Made by a program: the position numbers and the translations under genes | The notes under the pieces: model-generated | Seen by the model: only the letters and a program-made list of their open reading frames with translations | What the model was told of the DNA's origin: nothing | The model's database searches: none | In this document: positions 7,166-57,575 of the stretch, piece by piece | How positions within the stretch are numbered: position 1 is the stretch's first letter | How the letters are laid out: the number at the start of each line of letters is the position of its first letter | From: Callorhinchus milii | Lineage: Eukaryota | Assembly (NCBI RefSeq): GCF_018977255.1 | Contig: NW_024704742.1 | Span: 126,666,001-126,730,000 of the forward strand | Direction of reading: 5' to 3' | Length of the DNA: 64,000 bases

Positions 7166-7663
7166 GGATTGGTATAATAACTTGTTAAGAGCAGATATTA
7201 GTATCAGAGTTGTTAGCTCCAGTGGATAAGGTGGCATCAATTAGGCTTGATGAGCTGAATAGACTCTTGTATCTTCTATGATTCAAAGCACAAAGCTTTC
7301 TTTAAATGGACAACCTCAGATAAGTCACATGGAATCATGGTGTTGGAAATGCAAAAATTGCACTAGCATAGAAAGAGGTTTTACTCTCTGTCTATGAGGT
7401 CCTCCATATCTGAACAAAGTGTCTTGACACACACCCTACGAATGGCCATTCGGATGAGATACTGGAGTCTGCCAGCACCCCAATAAGAGGCTCAGAGCCT
7501 TTAGCAGAAAAGCAGACACAATTGGTTAAAATATAACACTTTTTTATTTTATAGGAAAAACTTTGCTGTAAAGAGGCTATGACGAGAAAACAAATGCACA
7601 ATAGCAGTTGCTTTTGACCATATTAAGAGAGAGACACACACACGTTTAGAAGATCTATCTTAC

Positions 7664-9611
7664 CTTCTGCTTTCACTCCACCATCAAAAGAAGCACCGTT
7701 TGCCATCTGGTTATGGAATGTATTTATTGGTTCCAGTTTCTGAGTGGCTTCTTCAGAATGTTGGGTTCTGCAGGACATCTTATTTTCCAGGTGATCTGTT
7801 TCATACACATTTTTGCTGCCCTTTTTGTTGAAACGATGAATAAAAGGTGCGCCACATGAGGCTGTCAAATCCACCCTTGTGGATGAGATCCCAGGCAGAC
7901 TGTGGTAATGGTCTTCGTCTAGATTAAGAAATACATGATTTTCTTTCTGATTTTCCAATATTGGAGAAAACTCCAGAGACGACTCTCCACTGGATTTCAA
8001 CGGTGGTGAGTTCCCGCTCCGCTTCCTGGTTCGAGCTATTTCAGCAAATGAAGTGACTCGTCTCGGTGGTGATCTCTGAGATGTCCCAGATTGACCATCA
8101 CTAAGCTTGCCCGGGCAGCTATACATGCGTTCCAACGATCCTAGCCGAGGAGAAGGGCTCTTATCTAGATTGCGATCGTAACTCCTTGATCTCTGCCTGC
8201 CAGCAGTGTTCGATGCAGCAACATTCACATACACTTGACCTTCAATGAGATCTTCAGTAGTTTCCACCATTGCTGTCTCCTCAACACACTCCTCAATTCT
8301 GTTATCCTTTTTCATATCTTCTGGTTTCTGGAAGAGATAATACTCTGTAGGTTGGCCAGGACTTGTACTTTTTGTGTGTTCCTCTGAGCAGCTTGTAATT
8401 GAAGACTCTACTGGGCTGGGGGTAGACTGAGAAGACAAGTCACAAGTCACTAATTTATAATAGTTTTGTGTTGCAACAACCAGTCTTGCGTGACTTTGAA
8501 AGCATGCAGTGAAATCAGAATTTTCTGAAGAACAGGGCATATTTTCACACGGTAGATGATATGAATTGCAGTTGGCATCAAGAGCTGGCGAACATCGCTG
8601 ATGGCATGAACAGGTTGTCATAACACTGTCTTCATTGTGAATCTCACATGAATTCTTTGGTTCATTGGGCGATGAATGTAGATCCAAGTAGAATGCTCCC
8701 ATCTCTGGATGACCACAATAAGAAGAGTCATGGGACACATTACCCAAGCTCAAGTTAGACTTTGACTGGCTTTTCATCTTATTGTAGATTGCAGTAAAGT
8801 TGACCAGCACACCATCAGAACTGTTACATGATGAATCACTGTTGTAAGTCATATGCTGATTGTCTATTATCTCAGATTGATCTGAAAAGATACCTCTGTT
8901 TTGTTGGATATCTAGGCTAGAACTGCTACATGTTCTACTCTCTAGTAAATCTTGCTTTCTGAATGATCCATCTGGGCTGCTGTCCAAGCCTTGATCACAA
9001 TCAAAGAATAAGGATGAACTGCTACCGTTATTATAATTGCACATTGGTAGCTCCAATTGATCATCTGAAGGTGGTCTTGACATGATGATTTGATTTGACG
9101 TCTTGCCGTCAGCTATACCATTCTGCTCTTCTTGACCCTCCGCAATCCCTTGTCTGCTGGCCAGGCTCCATTGCTTTGTGATGTTTTCAATGCCATGTAG
9201 GTGAAATGGTTGTTCATGCAGAGGAAATGGTGGTTTATTCATGTTCCTATTCTTCTGAAGATGGAAGGAACTGTGACTGGAGTTTTCTGGGCCAATGTAC
9301 TCATTGAGAATGAATGAATTGTGCTGTTCACCGCCTGTTCCTTTTAAGTCAGGATGCCGGACTTCAATTTCATCTGAAGCACCAAAGGGTAAACATGAGG
9401 CCTGAATTAAGCTGCTATAAACTAATGTCTCCTTCTGAAGTAGGTCTTTCTCTGGTAGAGAAGTAGTCCTTGTGATTCCTAGATCAGTATGGCAGAAAGG
9501 GTTTGATCGTTTGCCCATACTACAGCACTGTCTGTCTGGAATCTGGCAATGAACAAGGGGAATGTGATGTACAATCAGCGTTTCCCCTGTTAGTTTGGGC
9601 GGGCTGTCCAT
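7664..9611 (-). CDS. RUSC2: RUSC2 first coding exon (large N-terminal low-complexity region); exon begins at 9710 in the 5' UTR
   Basis: Starts MDSPPKLTGETLIVHHIPLVHCQ (RUSC2 N-terminus); also DSSCNSSDGVLVNF, ARLVVATQNYYKLVTCDLSSQS, RSRSYDR, RVTSFAEIA. Strong Kozak cagcATGG; acceptor tttttcag| at 9711-9712; donor AG|gtaaga at 7662-7663. Confidence 0.95.
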
Positions 9612-9625
9612 GCTGTCTTAGGTCA

Positions 9626-9694
9626 TCAGCCGAGCTGGACAGAATATACAGAACCTTTTGTGGTCATACAGACCGTCATTAACATACAATTCAT
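9626..9694 (-). other. Upstream ORF (22 aa, MNCMLMTVCMTTKGSVYSVQLG*) in the RUSC2 5' UTR, overlapped at its stop by a mini-uORF ATG ACC TAA (9626-9618)
   Basis: Read directly from the minus strand between the acceptor (9710) and the main ATG (9611). First ATG is in ACCATGA context; four ATGs share the frame. Confidence 0.7.
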
Positions 9695-12600
9695 GGTGTA
9701 GATTGGAAGCCTGAAAAAGGAATACACAAAACAGAAAAATGTGAGCCCTTGCATTACATGTAAATAGTATCTTATGGGTAGCAGCCAAAACAACAATACA
9801 CAATAACAACAACTTGCGTTTATATAGTGCCTTTCACACCGGAGGACATCCCAAGACCTCTCCTACCAATATAGGACAGGGTAAATCACGTCCACCTGTA
9901 GTCATTTGTCAATTGTCATTAGTTATCAACTGGTGCATTGACCACACAAATCCCATTACCCCACTTTTTCTCCCTGACCCTTAATATCATTACTTGAAGT
10001 ATTGCCCAATTGCCTTATTCACACCTTCGTCATCCTATGATTTTCACCCTACAGAAACTGAAGTAGGTCATTCAACTCCATAAGCCTATTCTACCATTTT
10101 ATTAGATCAAGGTGGATCTTTTAATCCTATTCACCCTATTCAAGAAAGTATAATTTTTTTCCAAGTATCAATTAATCTCCCACTCCTGATAATAATCCCT
10201 CAAGAAAAAATAAAATAAAATTGGTCACTTCAATCCACGACTGTTTGTGGGACACTGCTGTGCGCAATTGGCTGCCACGTTTCGCCCACAAATATACAGT
10301 CAATTCACTTTACAGTATATTCTGTGAAGCGCTTTGAGAGTCTAGAAGACGTGAAAAGCACTATATCAAATGCCAGGATTATTATTATTATTATTTAAAG
10401 TTTGCAATCGATTTGGCATCTACAGCCTGCTGGGGCAGTGCATTCAAATTAGTTTGTTTTTATTTTCTGTACAATATAAATAACGATTATTACTGGACAC
10501 CTACATAGCAGGGGCAATGATCGCGAAAGAGACTGTGGCTTTTTGTTTCCCCTCTTTTTTGTACAGATGGTATTTATCTGCCTGATCTAAGCTACATGCC
10601 TATCTGCAGCTGCCTAAGAGAAAGAAATTTCTTTGTTGTGCAATTGCAGCTTTTCCTGGCCCTTTTTGGTGCGACTTGCCTCATATAATTGATATCTGAT
10701 ATCATATAATTGATATCTGATCAATTATACATTACCAATAGGCACAATGGCAAATGTTTGGTTTTGCATAAAATAAAATAAATATTTTGGATATGTAAAC
10801 AGGCCCCATTGGGATTTATGTTTTTTAAAAAATGTGAATTCAGATACAAAGCAAATCAGGGTCTTCTTCAGATCAAAAATAAAAATGTTCAAAACATCGG
10901 GTTCAGTGGGGGTACAATAAGCAAATGAATGTGAAGAAACACACATAATGGCTTGTGATGTTATTGGGCATGAAATTCTAGAAATGATTTTAGTCCTAAG
11001 GGTCTCACACTCCCATTGTATTACCAACAATAACTTGCATTTATATAGCGCTGCTCATGCAGGCTAGCGTCCCAGAGCATTTGACAGTGGTGGAGCTCAA
11101 CGCCGAGCACTTTTGCTTCAGCACTGTACAGGTTCAAAGGTGCTGAAACCAATATCCAGCAAGAAGAGACTTCACAGTACTTTAGGAATTTTCATCGTCC
11201 TTTCTCATCTATTTTTGCTGCATATTTGCATTAGGGATTGTGGGCTTTTGTATGCAAATGTCAGCTGGCTCAAAGTGAAGGGCTTCTGTTAGCTTGTAGT
11301 TAAGTTTTTTTAATATTTTACTGTTTTTAAAAAATATTGCTACCTTTTCTGTCCATGCATCATTCTGTTTCATACACATTTGATACTGATTCTCAAACTG
11401 AGTGAATACTTCATGTTATCCCAACCTTTCAAAATAACACTTCTGCACATTCCTACTCAATTCTCTTAATTGTTTTTCATACAAATCATATTGAGATTGC
11501 CTGTCTGCATTCTTACTGGAGGATTTGCAGTGCATACATGCAGTGCAATATAGCACCTTCATCATAGGAAATAGCAGACAAATTACCATTGAACGCAGTA
11601 ACAGTAGTTTCAATTGAAACCATAAGGAGCAGTGTATTTCTGTTTAATCAGAATTACCACCAAAATGCAGGAACAATATCAGTGTTTTTCCATTTAGTTT
11701 AGTTGCGTCCCAATCTTGGAATTCAATTTTTTTTTGGGGGGAAAGGTCATTACATTTACTTCCAAATCAAAAGGTATAGACATAAATAAGATACCATAAT
11801 ATCACGCAGCATTTGTATGTGGGATACTTAATAATCCTTGCATATTGATGTCGTGCTTTATTATGTCTTCTCAATGTCTCAAAGCGCTTCACAAAATACA
11901 CTGTAAAGTGAATTGACTATGTTTTATGGGCGAAATTATAATTTGATTATAATGCTCACATCTCACCAAGCAATATTACTGACTCTGTGCAAATTAAAAA
12001 ACATACAAAGAGACACAGTAGTTCACACCTCCACTGTATACAAAAGCCTAATATTAAGATATTGAGATATAATATACTCCACGGTCATCTATCACTATGT
12101 TTAGATTGCAAATTGCAGCACTACAAATATTGGTTAACAAAACAGGTTTAACACAAGCAACATAAGAAAATAGTTAAAGACCATTTTGGAAAATGGATAA
12201 TACAGAATTGCTTGTACCCAGCAATACCATCACAAATTGCCACATCCCTTCAGCTTCCATATTACCCTTCAGCACAACGCCTTTGTTGTGCTCGGCACAT
12301 TTGCCACACACGAATAGGTAGGACAAAGCCTATTTTTAAATTTAAAAAGACTAGTCACATTACAAAGATAATTGACAGTAATTTAATCCCTGTGTTTTCC
12401 TTTGGCTTATAAAATGCTTGAGATTTATTCTTGGGAATTTAATGATGCAGTCAGTAAGGAGCTGACTGAATATTGTTTTAAAGCTCCACCCAGTGATACA
12501 GCATGGCAGCCTCACATGAGAAACATCCACAACACCAATGAAGGCAGTCAAATATCAGCCCACAACACTTTAACATCACCAGAGGGCACCTGCTATCCTC

Positions 12601-24069: not shown

Positions 24070-25075
24070 GAAATCATCCGCAGACATGGGTTCAACTTCC
24101 ACATGTACATGGATGACACCTAACTCTATCTCTCTGCCTCCACCCTCGACCACAGGACCACCGCTGTCCTGACAGACTGCCTGTCAGACATCAAGTCCTG
24201 GATGGGAGCCAACTTTCTACAGTTGAACGTCAGCAAAACAGAGGCTCTCCTGACTGGCCCACTTCAGTGCCTCTGCACCTCAGGCACTGGTAGCATCAGC
24301 ATCCACGGATTCACACTCCAATTCACCAAGGCAGTCAGGAACCTAGGCATCTTGTTCGACCCTCAACTGTCCTTTCTCCTTCACATCCATGCCATGACCC
24401 GCTCTGCCTTACGCCACCTCCGCAACATTGCCACGCTCTGCCACTGCCTCACTCCTCAGGCTGCTGAAACCCAAATACATGCCTTCATTACAACGAGGCT
24501 CGACTGTGCCAACGTCTTGCTTGTTGGTCTTCCCAACTCTTCCCTCCACGCTGAAGATCATCCTGAACTCTGCAGCTCGTGTCCTCTCCCGCACCAGGCT
24601 CCATAACCCCATCACACCCACCCTCGACCGGCTCCACTGGCTTCCCATCCCTCAGAGCATCGAGTTCAAAATTCTCGTCCTCACCTTCAACGCCCTCCAT
24701 GGCCTTCCACCTCCTACCTCTCCAACCTGCTAACCCCTTATCAACCTGTCTGCTCAGCAGGCTCCGGCCTGCTCCATGTCCCCTGCCCATCCTGCCCCAC
24801 CATTGGCTGTCGGGCCTACAGCCTCTCTGCCCCCACTCTCAGGAATTCCATCCCACATTCCCTTCGCCTTGTTCCTTGCCTCCTTCAAGGCACTCCTTAA
24901 GACCCTCCTCTTCAACCGTGCCTTCTGCCATCCTCCTACACCCACCCTCCCCGCCTTCCACCCTCCCTGATCCCAACCGGCCCACCCCACCAGCTCGGAT
25001 CCTAATCCCTGACTGCTCAGCACCTTGGGACATCCTCCCGACGTGAAAGGCGCTTTACAAATGTAATTTTGTATT
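24070..25075 (+). mobile_element. L2-clade LINE 3' fragment
   Basis: YMDDT*LYLS, SWMGANFLQLNVSKTE, VRNLGILFDPQLSF, TRLDCAN, LHWLPI...FKIL; ends with the stem-loop tail gcaccttgggacatcctcccgacgtgaaaggcgc. Confidence 0.9.
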
Positions 25076-28000: not shown

Positions 28001-30484
28001 TCCCCACACAGTGAGCTCGATTTTCCAATAAAGATTTTTTAAAAAAGGTTTTCATTTAAACTCCTTAATTAAGCACAAATCTCTTAGAAATGGAGGAAAG
28101 ATAACCAGGTGCAGGGTTTCAGGTCCAAATCCCTGACTTTGCAGCACCTTGAGACATCCTCCCGATGTGAAGGATGCTTTACAAATGTAAATTGTTGTTG
28201 TATCGAACATTCCTCTCGAAATATGCATTGGGAGATATGGAAAAAACAACCTGAGGTACCTCTCCACTTACTTGCTGCCATGCTTCCCATTTCACTTATT
28301 TTTATATCAACTGGACACAGGGTACTGGAATTCTGTTTTAAAAATAAATGTCCCATCCTTCCTAGGGTGTCCTTTTTTCCAGCCTTTCATCTTCCAGATC
28401 ACGAGAGGACAAGCAGGCAACACCAGCCATCTTCATGACTTTTACAAATTCTGCTTGTTGTATTCTAATGTCAAATCCTCAAGTATGACTCAAGTTGGAA
28501 CCCTGGATAACTTTCCATTCCCTCCCACTGACAAGGGACATGCCTTGACTCAGTGACTCTGAATGGCATGTCACCAGGGAATGAGAATTGAGAACGTAAG
28601 GTCAACCGGTTTTAAACCTGGCCTCCCAGTTCACACTGCGCTGAGAAATTTTTCTGATGTATAAATTGTATGTTTAATTGTATGATATGACCGGGATTGA
28701 CAAGACAACTGCATTGATTTAATGCTGGTATTTAGCACTCAGAAATTCAAAGTTCATAATGTTCACTTAACGTTCATCTCTTTAATGCAGAATTTTCTAG
28801 GTGAGTAAGTTGCTCTCAATTAGAACTTTCAGAACTAGAAAATAGCAACATAAACTTTTTCTATGCTGTAATATTCTATAATTCTCTATAAACTGCAAAC
28901 TATACTTATGTCCAACAAAGCTGAATGCTGCGACAGTGAGTCAGAATGGGTTTGACTATTTTGACTGCCCTGAAAATATATGTGCCAAGAATGTTAGGTC
29001 TGGATGACACTCCAGTTCTCAGATTTTCCTTAAGCCGTCGCAGCACAGCTGTTATATAAAAATATCCCCACTGGTTTTCCAAAGAGTTGTCTGCACAGGG
29101 CTTGAAATTAACAGGAGCTCAATTGTTAATTCAGCAGCAAACGCTCTTAGAAACCCCTCGTTTTGGAGAGCTAAATTGCGATGTGTATTTATTCCCTGCC
29201 AAAATTACTAGCATCTCCAATTACAGCTCATGTAGAACATTCTGCAGTGCCAAGTTTACAGCCAGTAAAAGACGTTTCAATTCACGTATTTTACAAAAGT
29301 GAATGTCTCCAGTATTGTTCTAGAATCATAGAATAGACAGGTAAAATGCTGCAGCAGAGACAGACCATTTGGCTCATTGAATCTCTTCTGGTATTTTTCT
29401 TTACGAGTCATTTCACTAGTCTAACCTCACTATGTTCATACTAATCAAGATATCTTAATCTTCTGAACTAGTTTAATATTTTTATAAATGATCTGGAACT
29501 AGGAGTCACAAGCGCTCTGGGACGCTACCCTGTGTGAGGGAGCACTACATACATGCAAATTGTTGTTGTTATGTTACTTGCTCCCCAAACTCTTCAATAG
29601 TCTTTTTTTCAAACATCAATCTAATTCCCTTTGAAAATAATTCATGGACTCTCCTCAAAACGACGATTTGAGGGCAGAGAATTCTAACCATCCAATGTGA
29701 AAAAGACAACCTCCCCTTTAATGTTTTTCTCACTGTCTTAAATGTGTGCCCTGTTTCTAACTTGATAACTAATTACTGTTTATCCTATTGTAATGTTCAT
29801 AATAATCAAGATGTCATCATGTAACACTTTAACCTTCTGAACTCTAGTGAAAAAGCCCAAAGCTCTCAAGGATCATATTTGAAATCCCCCCTTTCCCTGG
29901 TAACAGCACTGTATACCTAGGTTGCAAGATTTTCATTGCTTCCTATAATGTGTGGGTGGCCAAAGTTTTCTGTTGAAATTTTATATAAATTGGACCAATT
30001 ATATTTTCATTGTGCACTTAGCAGAAGAGCAGTTAGTAGCACTTCTGAGAGGTTTTAAAGAGATGATAAGGCGCTGTATCAAATGCAAGGATTATTATTA
30101 CTAATTTATCAGATTTAAAAATGTTAGATCTTTAAAAAGCATTTTGGCTGATAAATCATCTGCGATTACTCCTCCAACTGATGTGGGATTCATTCGTTGT
30201 ATTATGAAAACAAAGTCAAAGCAATCTAGTCTTATGAAAAATTAAATGTTTGGTGTGTACATGGTGGGAAGTCGTGCTCAGCACACAAAAAAGACACTTT
30301 TCTGACAAAAACCTAATCGATCCTCATCACATCAGTTACGGTAAGATGGTTGTAATGTCAAAATTAAATGTGAATCTACTTCCAAAAATATTCAGACTAC
30401 CTTCCGACAACAATCTTTTCAATAAATCAGAAGTCGCTGGGAACACTCAGCAGGTCAGGCAGCATCTATCGAGAAAGGAAAGTG

Positions 30485-30521
30485 AGTCAACGTTTCAGGT
30501 CCACAACCATTCGTCAGAACT
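30485..30521 (-). ncRNA. Minimal type-I hammerhead ribozyme motif (core intact)
   Basis: AGTT-CTGACGA-atggttgtggacct-GAAAC-GTT-GACT: helix I AGTT/GACT, CUGANGA and GAAA boxes, imperfect helix II, palindromic AACGTT helix III, GUU cleavage triplet. Confidence 0.65.
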
Positions 30522-30912
30522 GGGGCATGTTGGGAGGGAGAGGCTTTTAGGGGCTAACAGAGAGGGGGGAGACAGGGCAAGGAAGACAAAGGAGAAAATG
30601 GGGTAGAAGACAGGGGGTGATGGGTTAAAGAGGCTTTAATGATGCAAAACAAAGCGGGGGGTTGCAACAAAGCAGGGGAATAGAGATGTTAATACTGCAG
30701 AACAAAAGGGGAGGAGAGAAAAGATTGCAAAAAAACAGGCAGACCAGAGAGAGAAAATGTGTGTTTGGGACCAAGATGATATGGTAATGGTCAGAGAAGA
30801 GGGAGAGGGGGGATGTGAGCTGTTATGGTCTGAAATTGTTGAAATCAATATTGAGGCCAGAGGGCTGTAAGTCACTAGCAGATAAATGAGGTGCTGTTCC
30901 TCGATCTTGCTC

Positions 30913-30949
30913 AGTTCTGACAAAGGGTTGTGGCCCTGAAACGTTGACT
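30913..30949 (+). ncRNA. Minimal type-I hammerhead ribozyme motif (core G8->A, probably inactive)
   Basis: AGTT-CTGACAA-agggt tgtg gccct-GAAAC-GTT-GACT; helix II pairs well but the core reads CUGACAA. Confidence 0.55.
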
Positions 30950-31112
30950 CACTTTCCTTTCTCCATAGATGCTGCCTGACCTGCTGAGTGTTCCCAGCGA
31001 CTTCTGTTTTTGTTTCAGATTTCCAGCACCTGCAGTATTTTGTGTTTTCTTTCAATGAATCATCTCACTCTGCAATGCTTTCAATCTATGCTACATGCTT
31101 TTTGGCCTAATC

Positions 31113-31507
31113 TACAACAACAACAACTTGTATTTCTATAGCATACAACCCGACCTCCTAACCCCCTACCACCCTGTTCGCTCCCTCCACTCTGCGGGCT
31201 CCGACTTGCTTCACGTCCCCCGCCTTTCTCACCCCACTATCGACGGGCGGGCCTTCCGCCACTTTGCACCCACCCTCTGGAACTCCATCCCGCAGTCCCT
31301 CCGCCTGGTCCCCTCCCTCGCCACCCTCAAGACCCACCTCAAGACCCTCCTCTTCGATCACGCTTTCGATCTCCCTGCTACCCCCCCCTACCCTCCACCC
31401 TCCCCCACCCCGACCCTCAGCTCGGGTCCATAACTCTGTCTGTCCAGCGCCTTGGGATGTCCTCCTGGCGTGAAAGGCGCTATATAAATGTAATTTTGTT
31501 GTTGTTA
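31113..31507 (+). mobile_element. L2 3' fragment
   Basis: GRAFRHFAPTLWNSIP...KTHLKTLLF, stem-loop tail and (TTG)n. Confidence 0.85.
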
Positions 31508-37499: not shown

Positions 37500-37808
37500 T
37501 TTATAATCCTTGCATTTGATATAGCGCTTTTCACGTCTTCTCGACGTCTCAAAGCGCTTCACAGAATAGACTGTAAAGTGAATGTACTGTATATTTGTGG
37601 GCGAAACGCAGCAGCGAATTGTACACAGCAGTGTCCCACAAACAGTCGTGGATTGGAAATGACCAATGTATTATTGTTTTTTTCTTGAGGAATTATTATT
37701 ATTATTATTGGAGTGAGGAAATTTGCCCAAGGTTTCGCTCTGCCGGGAATCGAATTCAGGTCTCTCACTTGGGAGGCGAGTGCTCTAACCACTGAGCTAC
37801 AGGACTCC
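37500..37808 (-). mobile_element. tRNA-derived SINE (same family, internal deletion)
   Basis: Reverse complement of head and tail. Confidence 0.85.
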
Positions 37809-38499: not shown

Positions 38500-39200
38500 C
38501 TCGGGGGCTTCAGACAGAGACACTGAGACCCAGAGAGGAGGAGGAGGAGGAGGAATGGCTGCCGGGGGGGGGGGAGGGGGGGGGTCTGCACTGCACCTCA
38601 GACAGACGTGAGCGGTGATGGAGCCGAGAGATCACTGACAGGACAGGACAGGGCGGGAGCTGAGGCCACGGATTAGTGATTTAATGCGTAACAACAACAA
38701 TAACAACAACAACAATAAGGATCTCCGGTCCCAGACACACAGTCACAGAGAGAGACGGAGAGACAGAGGGGGACACCGTTTCACACCCAATCCCCGGCCC
38801 CGGTGTTTGACAGCCGCCGCTCCGCTCCCCCCAAACATTCACACCCAATACAGCGACCTGTCCGCTGACCCCTCCCTCCCGGGCCTGACACCCCCCCACA
38901 CCCCCCACACCCCCCCCCTCCGCCCACACTCACCGCGCGGACCCCCTCCGCCGCCGCCGCCGCCGTCTCCACTGGTTACCGAGACCCCGCTGTCCGCTGT
39001 CTGTCAGTCAGTCACACGTGACTCTCCCTCTCTCTCTCCCTCTCTCTCTCGCTCTCTCCCGCCCAACGGTGCCGGGTTTGGGCGGGTTCACGCCCAACTG
39101 GGCTGGTTTTTTTTGCTTTGGGGAGGGTTTTGGTGGGGGGATGGGGGAGGGAGGGGAGGAGCAGGGTGGGGGGGGGGAACTCATCTTTAATTTAAAACTG
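38500..39200 (-). promoter_or_regulatory. CpG/GC-rich promoter region of RUSC2 with GC boxes and an E-box/CLEAR-like GTCACGTG
   Basis: GC/CpG-rich island in an AT-rich background; CCGCCC/GGGCGG near 39059-39087; CACGTGAC at 39015-39022; (CT)n tract at ~39023-39058. Confidence 0.6.
38934..39020 (-). other. RUSC2: Probable non-coding first exon of RUSC2 (5' end approximate)
   Basis: Lies in the only strongly CpG-rich segment of the window, contains (GGC)n, and ends at a canonical donor CGCG|GTGAGT (38933-38928) oriented toward the RUSC2 coding exons. Confidence 0.6.
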
Positions 39201-39274: not shown

Positions 39275-39606
39275 AATAATATTATAATAATAATAATAAT
39301 CCTTGCATTTGATATCGCGCCTTTCACGTCGGGAGGACGTCCCAAAGCGCTTCACAGAACACACTGTAAAGTGAATTGACTGTATATTTGTGGGCGAACG
39401 CGGCAGCCAATTGCGCACAGCAATGTCCCACAAACAGTCGTAGATTGAAAATGACCAATTTATTATTGTTTTGGGGTTTTGGAGGGATTATTATTAGGCT
39501 CTGTGTGGAGTAAGGAAACTTGCCCAAGGTTTCGCCCTCTGCCTGGAATTGAACTCAGGTCTCTCACTTGCAAAGCGAGTGCTCTAACCACTGAGAAACA
39601 GGACTC
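39275..39606 (-). mobile_element. tRNA-derived SINE (same family) just upstream of the RUSC2 promoter
   Basis: Reverse complement of head (39530-39606) and tail with (AAT)n. Confidence 0.85.
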
Positions 39607-47403: not shown

Positions 47404-48030
47404 TGAAATTCTGTAGCTCAGTGGTTAGAGCACTCGCCTCGCAAGCGAGAGACCTGGGTTTGATTCCCGGCAGGGCACAATGTTGGGCAAGTTTCCTTAC
47501 TCCACACATCTCTGTTTACCTAGCAGTAAGTAGGAACCCAGTTGTTTGTCGATTGGCGAATCGCTTTTCCGGGGATAATAATCCCTCAAAAAAAAGTAAT
47601 AATTTGGTCACTCAAACCACGATTATTTGTGGAACACTGCTGTGCGAAATTGGCTGCCAAGTTTCGCCCACCCACAAATATACAGTCAATTCACATGGCT
47701 CTGGAACTCTATCCCCCAGTGCCTTCGCCTTGCCTCCTCCCTTTCCTCCTTCAAGGCCGGTCTCAAGACCTTTCTCTTTGACCGTGCCTTCAGCTCCCCT
47801 CTCGACTCTCTACCCCCTGCTCGCTCCCTCCCTTCTCTCCCCTCACCCTGACCATTTCCCCCTTGCTCGGGTCCTGACCCAACTGTACAGCGCCTTGGGA
47901 CGTCCTCCCGACGTGAAAAGCACTCAATAAATGGAATCTTGTTGTTGTTGTTACAGTATATTCTGTGAAGCGCTTTGAGACGGCTGGAAGACTTGAAAAG
48001 CGCTATATCAAATGAAAGGATTATTATTTA
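47404..48030 (+). mobile_element. tRNA-derived SINE with (ATT)n tail, interrupted by an L2 3' fragment (47696-47952)
   Basis: Head tgtagctcagtggttagagcactcgcctcgcaagcgagagacctgggtttgattccc (A/B boxes); body matches other copies; ends aaatgaaaggattattatt. Confidence 0.88.
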
Positions 48031-51377: not shown

Positions 51378-53075
51378 TACAACAACAACAACAAAATTAC
51401 ATTTGTACAGCACCTTTCACGTCAGGAGGACATCCCAAGGCGCTGGACAGACAGAGTTTTGGACGCGAGCTGGGGGTCAGGAACAGGGAGGGTGGAGGGC
51501 AGGAGGGGAAGCTGGGAGATCAAAAGCACGGTTGAAGAGGAAGGTCTTGAGATCGGTCTTGAAGGAGGCAAGAAAGGGGGCAAGGCAGAGGGACTGCGGG
51601 ATGAAGTTCCAGAGGGTGGGGGCAGAGTGGCAGAAGGCCCGTCCGCAAATAGTGGGGCGAGCAAGGCAGGGGACGTGAAGCAGGCCGGAGCCCACTGAGT
51701 GGCGCGAGCGAGCAGGATGGTAGGGGGTTAGGAGGTCACAGAGGTAGTGGAGAGCAAGACCATGGAGGGGTTTGAAGGTGAGAACAAGGATCTTGAACTG
51801 TATCCTCTGTGTGATGGGAAGTCAGTGGAGTCGGGCGAGGATGAGGACACGGGCTGCAGAGTTCTGGATGATCTGCAGCCTACGGACGGAGGAGTTCAGG
51901 AGGGCGACAAGCAGGGAGTTTGCATAGTCAAGCTTGGATGTTATAAATGTGTGTATGTGGGTTTTGGTGGCCTGTGTTATGAGACAGTGGTGGAGCCGGG
52001 CGATGATGCAGAGGTGGGGGAAGGCAGAGTGGGTCGTGGCGCAGATGTGGGGTAGAAAGGATAGTTGAGGGTCAAACAAGACGCCAAGATTCTGGACTGG
52101 CTTAGTAATGTGGAGAGTGCATCGATGGATGGTGATGCTGTCAGCGCCTGATGTGTGGAGGTGCCGACGGGAGCCAATCAGGAGAGCCTCGGTCTTGTTG
52201 ACGATCAACTGAAGAAAGTTAGCTCTCATCCAGGACTTGATGTCTGACAGACATTCTGTCAGGACAGCAGTAGTCCTGGAGTCGAGCATGGAGGCAGAGA
52301 GGTACAGTTGGGTGTCATCTGCATACATGTCTTCGGATGATGTCACTAAGAAGGAGCATTTGGATATTGAAAAGGAGGGAATCAAGGACAGAGGCCTGAG
52401 GAATGCCACACGAGACGGTGCGGGGGCTAGAGGAGAAACCATTTGTGGAGATGAAGTGCAGGCGGTGTGAGAGGTACGACCTGAACCAGTCAAGGACAGC
52501 GCCGTGTAGGTTGAGGTGAGAGGAGAGGCGGTGGATGAGGACAGAGTGGTCGATGGTGTCGAAGGCAGCAGAGAGTCAAGAACAACAACAACAACAAGAT
52601 TCCATTTATAAAGCGCCTTTCACGTCAGGAGGACGTCCCAAGGCGCTGAAAGAAGGATGAGGAGGCAGCAGGAGCCCTGGTCACAGGTGGACAGAATGTC
52701 ATTTGTCACTTTGACCAGGGCAGCACGGAAACCCAATTGGAGGGGTCCGTGAAGGGAGTGGCGGGAGAGGAAGGAGCGAAGCTGGGAAGCAACAACTCGT
52801 TCCAGGACCTTGGAGAGAAAAGGGAGGTTGGAAATGGGGCCATAGTTTGAGAGTAGAGATGGGTCCAAGGAAGGCTTTTATAAGGATAGGAGTGATGACG
52901 ACCGTTTTTAATGGGGTGGGAATGGACAGGGAGAGGATATTGATGTCTGTGAGTAGAAGGGCAAGGAGTTGGAACTGGGAGGTAAGGAGAGGTGTAGGGA
53001 TGAGGTCGAGGGAGCAGGTGGTCGGTTTCATGTGGGTTATAGTGGCGGTGAGAGTGGGGAGAATTTTTTTCCAGG
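51378..53075 (-). mobile_element. L2-clade LINE 3' portion with a nested short tail insertion
   Basis: TTCSLDLIPT, NYGPISNLPFLSKVLERVV, YADDTQLYLS, LDYANSLL; 3' tail with (TTG)n at ~51378-51445. Confidence 0.9.
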
Positions 53076-57132: not shown

Positions 57133-57575
57133 ACAACAACAACAACAAGATTCCATTTATTGAGCGCCTTTCACGTCGGGAGGACGTCCCAAGGCGCTGT
57201 ACAGTTGGGTTAGGACCCGAGCAAGGGGGAAATGGTCAGAGTAAGGGGAGGGAAGGGAGGGAGCGAGGAGGGGGTAGAGAGTTGAGAGGGGAGCTGAAGG
57301 CTCGGTCAAAGAGAAAGGTCTTGAGACCGGCCTTGAAGGAAGAAAGGGAGGAGGCAAGGCGAAGGCACTGGGGGATGGAGTTCCAGAGCCTAGGGGCTGA
57401 GAGGCTGAAGGCCCGTCCACCGATGGTAGGGCGGTTGGGGCGGGCATGTGCAGCAGACCGGAGCCAGAGGAACGGAGGGTACGGGCAGGTAGGTAGGGGG
57501 ATAGTAGGTCGGAGAGGTAGGAGGGAGCAAGGCCGTGAATGGCCTTGTAGGTGAGGATGAGGATCTTGAATTCGG
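57133..57575 (-). mobile_element. L2 3' fragment (young)
   Basis: EFKILILTYKAIHGLAPSYLSDLL; intact tail and (TTG)n; highly similar to 47696-47952. Confidence 0.88.

Follow-up and report, generated by a model that had tools for sequence, protein, structure and literature searches.

Does an intron of RUSC2 in Callorhinchus milii harbor a ribozyme that could cut the host pre-mRNA? The window that we analyzed, a 64,000-nt stretch of forward-strand DNA, contains a palindromic unit with a hammerhead-like motif in each arm. The original prediction described it as a remnant of a Penelope-like element (PLE) and proposed that one of the motifs makes the RUSC2 transcript potentially self-cleaving. Our best explanation, to which we assign a probability of about 0.9, is that the unit is a 5'-truncated, likely Neptune-clade PLE copy with an inverted partial pLTR, and that its hammerheads are, by prediction, passive passengers that do not cleave.

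Anatomy of the insert and its probable position in RUSC2

Comparison of the window with itself resolved a unit of 624 bases, in which two mirror-image arms surround a core (Table 1). The arms are 99 nt each, 95% complementary and spaced by 389 nt, and the repeats of about 100 bp around a core of about 390 bp that had been described are therefore real. Five positions differ between the arms: 30512G/30922A, 30509T/30925G, 30500A/30934C, 30470G/30964C, and 30427A/31007T (left arm read as minus strand, right arm as plus strand). A blastn search of the element against the window returned the arm match at E 3e-40 and no third copy. The unit is bracketed by a likely target-site duplication of 9–10 bp that is near-exact, with one T indel. 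Of the limits initially given for the element, 30420 to 31035, the insert itself stood; its right end lies at 31047, beyond a 37-nt tail, and the duplication lies outside.

On the minus strand, the core begins with 86 nt of an ORF end (30908->30823), continues into a 300-nt pyrimidine-rich UTR and leads to the left hammerhead motif. The ORF remnant, which is the frameshifted C-terminal peptide noted before, reads KIEEQHLIYLLVT, a one-base gap, QPSGLNIDFNNFRP, and a stop. The hammerhead (30521-30485) sits 3' of the ORF stop (30823) on the same strand, the pLTR layout of an endonuclease-bearing PLE, and the 99-nt inverted arm together with the 37-nt tail at one end, up to 31047, makes up a PLE-type inverted partial pLTR. 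Passages of two reports describe PLE insertions with an inverted pLTR, a one-sided tail of 30–40 bp and a target-site duplication of 8–10 bp (PMC3846280, PMC8557442). This anatomy and the published hammerhead consensus support the assignment to a Penelope-like remnant with minimal hammerheads.

Table 1. Features of the insert and of its host gene (window coordinates).
Feature	Position	Strand	Evidence and remarks
RUSC2 first coding exon region	7623..9710	-	acceptor 9710, ATG 9611
Left target-site duplication copy, likely	30414..30423	+	TCTTTTCAAT; organism B contig alignment ends at 30415
Left arm: 3' end of sense pLTR, hammerhead plus 60 nt downstream, without tail	30424..30522	-	self-comparison; high family depth
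Minimal type-I hammerhead string, RUSC2-sense	30485..30521	-	CUGACGA core intact, G10.1->U; predicted cut 30489/30488
Pyrimidine-rich 3' UTR portion of pLTR	30523..30822	-	C or T at 229/300 bases; family depth 3,000-37,000
GIY-YIG endonuclease ORF end, 28 codons plus stop, one-base frameshift	30823..30908	-	Neptune-type E-x13-GLN spacing, by-eye alignment
5' truncation / inversion junction	30909..30911	.	arm match stops at 30912; ORF remnant begins 30908
Right arm: inverted partial pLTR, start one base ahead of hammerhead helix I	30912..31010	+	self-comparison
Minimal hammerhead string, RUSC2-antisense	30913..30949	+	G8->A; A->C in helix II
Optional 37-nt tail, right arm only	31011..31047	+	arm comparison; family contig exits at 31048
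Right target-site duplication copy, likely	31048..31056	+	TCTTTCAAT, one T fewer than left copy
RUSC2 candidate non-coding exon 1	38980..39100	-	CpG-rich bin, GT donor at 38979

Protein matches confirm that RUSC2 lies on the minus strand. The ORF at 7623-9617 encodes RUSC2/iporin, and its best matches are bird RUSC2 and iporin-like proteins (54–55% identity, E about 1e-180). Since its ATG lies 99 nt past a strong acceptor, there should be another exon further upstream. The 500-nt bin richest in CpG from 9.6 to 41 kb is 38600-39100, with 63% GC and 37 CpG. From the acceptor and the candidate exon 1 that would end at 38980, the insert likely resides in intron 1, where the original prediction placed it. 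A literature search for the RUSC2 exon structure yielded nothing relevant. The bin at 38600-39100 also contains a GC-box and a CACGTG and is a candidate for the RUSC2 promoter and non-coding exon 1.

The window contains other repeats. An abundant SINE family has tRNA-like heads with Rfam tRNA matches at 37735-37806 (minus) and 47411-47473 (plus), and a third similar head was found at 39502-39601 by self-comparison. Fragments of a LINE-like family, 72–96% alike, occupy 24101-25072, 31150-31506, 47697-47952, 51384-52330, and 57135-57574; the one at 31150-31506 begins 100 nt beyond the right end of the element.

Abundance, ends and probable clade of the family

To place this copy within its family, we used contigs matching 29850-31135 at 80% likeness in four public runs: X1 and X5 (organism A), X8 (organism B), and X17 (organism C), with X1 being a same-species run. 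Summed contig depth, which reports abundance rather than copy number and in its contig total takes in an unrelated repeat tail at 30064-30100, is 3,000–550,000 over 30409-31053 as compared to 5–18 in most X1 flank bins. The contrasts in the other runs are similar, with the family 3 to 5 orders of magnitude above the flanks in 4/4 runs. The insert belongs to a very abundant dispersed family present in three organisms. The arm motif gave 0 metagenome and 0 viral matches in public DNA collections. Matches to short motifs at 87 metagenome and 3 genome loci were dropped as chance, the top ones (best 40) being only 19–34 nt long.

Family contigs exit the stretch at 31048 (587 in X8 and 433 in X17). 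Joints to the tail of a neighboring repeat are found at 31014 in 6, 0, 15, and 3 contigs and at 31048 in 12, 0, 36, and 9 contigs of X1, X5, X8, and X17, respectively. These two preferred 3' ends lie 34 nt apart and represent the optional 30–40-bp PLE tail at one insertion end. In the Anolis element PAc, passages of PMC11167929 equate tail length with the spacing of two RT start sites, report a preference for cleavage at ATT, and identify the unprocessed RNA as the insertion substrate. The joints to 31014 and 31048 also give the impression that the family is often inserted into (TTA)n repeat tails.

The palindromic shape of the unit raises the alternative that all 624 nt were copied together and form a non-autonomous MITE-like or retrozyme-like element. 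Long terminal inverted repeats with a target-site duplication are what such an element would have, and the arms are far deeper than the core in all four runs. However, one arm is longer than the other, a truncated ORF lies at the end of the core, and the unit is not tandem. Moreover, other family contigs have different inversion junctions (30495->30912, 30524->30914, and others, among 12 of 586 contig rows), and none of the 32 listed contigs crosses the 30909-30911 junction. We consider copying of the whole unit improbable, with a slim chance at best. Among its specific forms, a DNA-transposon MITE was rejected on the unequal arms, the ORF end, the hammerhead and the tail, and a tandem retrozyme on the presence of two copies only, head to head; non-LTR retrozymes are described, in the part of the preprint used here, as head-to-tail tandem units with a hammerhead in each (bioRxiv 10.64898/2026.07.22.740005). 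In at least two of the 12 listed rows, head-to-head arms meet near the 5' edge of helix I (30495-30524 to 30912-30914), as they do at the locus, and this edge is a possible truncation hot spot.

Insertion of a truncated PLE copy, the reading that we prefer, could have proceeded as follows. The GIY-YIG endonuclease of the element would nick an AT-rich site with a stagger of 9–10 nt, and uncleaved element RNA would be the template for two cDNAs, primed at its two alternative 3' start points. The first cDNA would give the 485-nt piece with the hammerhead, the UTR and the last 28 codons; the second would give a 136-nt inverted piece carrying the tail. Joining of the two pieces head to head at 30909-30911, followed by neutral decay with three changes in the left arm and two in the right, would produce the present copy. 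Fold-back self-priming, proposed for rotifer PLEs in a passage of PMC3846280, would be another route to the same product. A passage of PMC4209133 describes a 5'-truncated PLE copy whose 5' end bears a second minimal hammerhead, which lies on the opposite strand.

Flanking contigs bear on the age of the insertion. A 1,587-nt contig of organism B, at a depth of 25, aligns with 30079-30415 with 31 other letters and 16 gap letters, and a piece of organism B that starts at 31048, at the same depth of 25, has variants at 31085-31091. A piece from organism C has the identical 31048 start and the same three variants. The matching depth and the piece ends suggest that organism B, a relative with ~90% identity, likely has an empty orthologous site; the insertion would then be lineage-specific, and an empty site fits the 5% divergence between the arms. 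In X1, the left-flank contig stops at 30414 and 31085-31091 is without cover; X5, probably an RNA run, does not cover the unique flanks, which says nothing about expression of the stretch.

One class of joints coincides with the predicted site of cleavage. The (TTA)n tail of the neighboring repeat is joined to the family at 30100->30947 in 1, 0, 1, and 5 contigs of X1, X5, X8, and X17 (among the best 15 of 1,291 joints), and a start at 30947 matches the predicted hammerhead cut, whose window equivalent is 30946/30947. A subset of copies may start there because RT ran off the 5' end of self-cleaved RNA, which would make these ends a record of cleavage in vivo. We judge this unlikely, and the joint is accounted for equally well by microhomology of 3 nt (TTA) to the (TTA)n target. 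In Anolis, the RNA-seq passages of PMC11167929 did not show hammerhead cutting during retrotransposition. If the run-off reading were true, and if a genome-wide peak outlived a control for microhomology, the peak would speak for cutting by minimal PLE hammerheads in the course of retrotransposition.

The ORF remnant points to the clade. By eye, the distance between E and GLN is 13 residues, as in the Neptune-1_Ac, DrerioNep1, Neptune1_Nv, and Penelope1_XT rows of the published GIY-YIG alignment, where the PoseidonFr and Nematis rows have nine residues (Fig. S2, PMC8557442). Our first guess, the Poseidon clade, was dropped for Neptune on this spacing. Identity, also counted by eye, is 8/17 residues to Neptune-1_Ac and 8/17 to Neptune1_Nv. 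At position 30874, where this copy encodes V, most family contigs (75–100% of depth in 4/4 runs) encode G, the residue of Neptune1_Nv. Naiads share the spacing, but passages of PMC8557442 describe their endonuclease as N-terminal and the elements as lacking canonical hammerheads. The insert is likely a fragment of a Neptune-clade PLE, a call made from a by-eye match of 17 residues, with the RT, the CxxC linker and the CCHH finger lost by 5' truncation. The PLE/GIY-YIG match expected for the core holds in this alignment but not in database searches: single reading frames, in pieces of 13 and 14 residues, recovered no PLE endonuclease from protein databases, and two of the searches gave no match at E<=10. 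What single-frame searching did return was a weak zinc-finger Pfam match in the arm-derived part, an unrelated PDB peptide at E 1, and one repeat-rich unrelated protein; an Atlas search with a single reading frame gave no match.

The hammerhead motifs and their fate in a transcript

The string AGUU-CUGAC(G/A)A-A-helix II-GAAA-C-G-U-U-GACU that had been reported in each repeat is present in both arms. The minimal hammerhead consensus, as given in a passage of PMC4209133, reads CUGANGAH G..C GAAAN-palindrome-NUH; a single base between A9 and G10.1 stays unpaired. Because this base precedes G10.1, the register of helix II shifts relative to a fold without a bulge. The left copy, which has the intact CUGACGA and runs on the RUSC2 sense strand from 30521 to 30485 as proposed, matches CUGANGAH (CUGACGAA) and GAAAN-palindrome-NUH (GAAACGUU) and pairs 4/4 positions of helix I. 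The cut position previously placed between 30489 and 30488 agrees with its GUU at 30491-30489. In the consensus register, its helix II opens with U.U at 10.1-11.1, followed by G-C, G-C, U-A, and U-G; without the bulge, 3/5 positions pair. The left copy fails the conserved G10.1-11.1 closing pair, and the description of its helix II as weakened is correct for the U.U, with four pairs still in place.

The right copy has the G8->A change noted in the original prediction and fails the C3-G8 (or U3-A8) core pair, with C3 opposite A8. In the consensus register, its helix II reads G.U, G-C, G-C, U.C (an internal mismatch), and U-G; the good helix II credited to it exists only in the shifted register, where five pairs form. 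Neither copy fits the full consensus, with U at 10.1 on the left and A at 8 on the right. In the PAc hammerhead, single C3 or G8 mutants abolish cleavage (PMC11167929, in a passage on mutants). Two family snippets of organism C (among 12 of 586 contig rows) are the only two that span helix II. Their reverse complements, made by hand, carry the unpaired A as well as G8 and G10.1; G12->A is present in both, and in one of them helix II pairs 5/5 with a different loop. Since both snippets carry G8, G10.1, and the helix II A, each arm probably bears derived lesions of its own.

When both strands of the window were scanned with relaxed motif criteria, three strings emerged: one in each arm and a third at 29312 (minus). 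As the latter has A6->G, no intact partner on the same strand is nearby. This string (29270-29316 minus) consists of CUGGAGAC, a 6-bp stem, and GAAACGUC; it is RUSC2-sense, lies 1.2 kb downstream of the insert, and may be due to chance or a relic of another family. The suggested Rfam hammerhead search returned none at gathering level in the 64 kb and none at E<=10 in 30300-31150, possibly because Rfam models expect a closed helix III. Cleavage by dimers reportedly was studied by Lunse et al. in 2017. In a passage of PMC4209133, single minimal hammerheads show no detectable cleavage in vitro and dimers show low cleavage. Judged by their bases, both motifs are damaged and likely inert at this locus.

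In a predicted fold of the minus strand over 30300-31200, the 37 bases of the motif pair with the antisense arm at an average probability of 0.94, and the predicted energies are -183.6 kcal/mol for the arm duplex vs -5.2 for the isolated motif. A near-perfect 99-bp duplex is predicted on either strand. With the arms in a head-to-head layout, transcription from either side reaches the antisense arm before the motif, and any transcript would trap the motif in a duplex of ~99 bp. The model supports the sequestration proposed in the original prediction, with the hairpin probably a by-product of the geometry of insertion.

These results bear on whether the RUSC2-sense hammerhead has been exapted as a regulatory ribozyme that cuts the pre-mRNA once the hairpin is opened. 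CUGACGA, GAAA, GUU, and the 4-bp helix I are intact on that strand, four helix II pairs are left, intronic ribozymes are known in vertebrate genes (passages of PMC6765202), and an Anolis PLE hammerhead does cut in the presence of its protein (a passage of PMC11167929). Against this stand the U.U at 10.1-11.1, a helix III that needs a partner when none of the three motif strings in the window offers an intact one on the same strand, and the 94% predicted pairing to an arm made earlier. The site is not conserved in the expected way, as the insertion is likely absent from organism B, and the concentration of changes in the motif (3/5 arm differences within the 27-nt core) does not exceed chance (P 0.13). 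We consider such an exaptation highly improbable. The claim of a potential self-cleaving motif in the RUSC2 pre-mRNA is not upheld, given the lost G10.1 pair, the missing partner, a class that is weak in vitro, and a relative in which the insertion is apparently absent.

Catalysis would be irrelevant if the intronic hairpin acted merely as double-stranded RNA, a substrate for A-to-I editing like inverted Alu pairs. Editing of such duplexes is established, and the predicted 99-bp duplex would suit it on either strand. The nearest candidate splice sites are about 8 kb and 21 kb away, however, which makes an effect on the mRNA unlikely. We hold this reading to be possible, though somewhat less probable than not; it is compatible with a passive PLE remnant and does not exclude it.

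Relation to known ribozymes and elements

An opposite-strand pair of hammerheads is a published, routine outcome of Penelope-like insertion. Pairs 100–700 bp apart are described in a passage of the 2014 report (PMC4209133), and one supplement file of the same report has no entry for shark, Callorhinchus, Leucoraja, Squalus, or skate; the element family may already be in print. The locus itself carries little weight: its copy is damaged, very many others exist, and the arrangement has been in print since 2014. It is a teaching example of Penelope-like anatomy, with a truncated ORF end, pLTR, inverted arm, one-sided tail, duplication, and a probable empty site in a relative. More generally, hammerheads of this kind in host introns would be silenced by default, since transcription from either side meets the antisense arm ahead of the motif. 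Real interest lies only at the level of the family, in a possible concentration of copy 5' ends at the cut site.

With the minimal hammerheads of metazoan PLEs (Cervera and De la Pena 2014, PMC4209133, in part), the motifs share type I architecture, a 4-bp helix I, CUGANGAH, GAAAN-palindrome-NUH, and a location in a pLTR downstream of the ORF. With the Neptune clade (Craig et al. 2021, PMC8557442, Fig. 2 and Fig. S2), the insert shares a C-terminal endonuclease ending in E-x13-GLN and an inverted 5'-truncated copy beside a pLTR with a 30–40-bp tail at one end; here only the last 28 codons are left of the protein. PAc, a Poseidon element of Anolis carolinensis (Frangieh et al. 2024, PMC11167929, in part), likewise has an optional tail set by two RT start sites and an ATT target preference (the duplication here reads ATTGAAA on the minus strand), and its cDNA spans the uncleaved hammerhead. 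The two differ in clade, by endonuclease spacing, and PAc is active whereas the insert is a relic.

The CPEB3 HDV-like ribozyme and the amniote intronic hammerheads, HH9 and HH10, are conserved across species and fold as monomers. The RUSC2-sense motif has in common with these conserved vertebrate ribozymes a sense-strand location in an intron of a host gene (PMC6765202, in part). In contrast to them, it is probably lineage-specific, requires a dimer, and is damaged.
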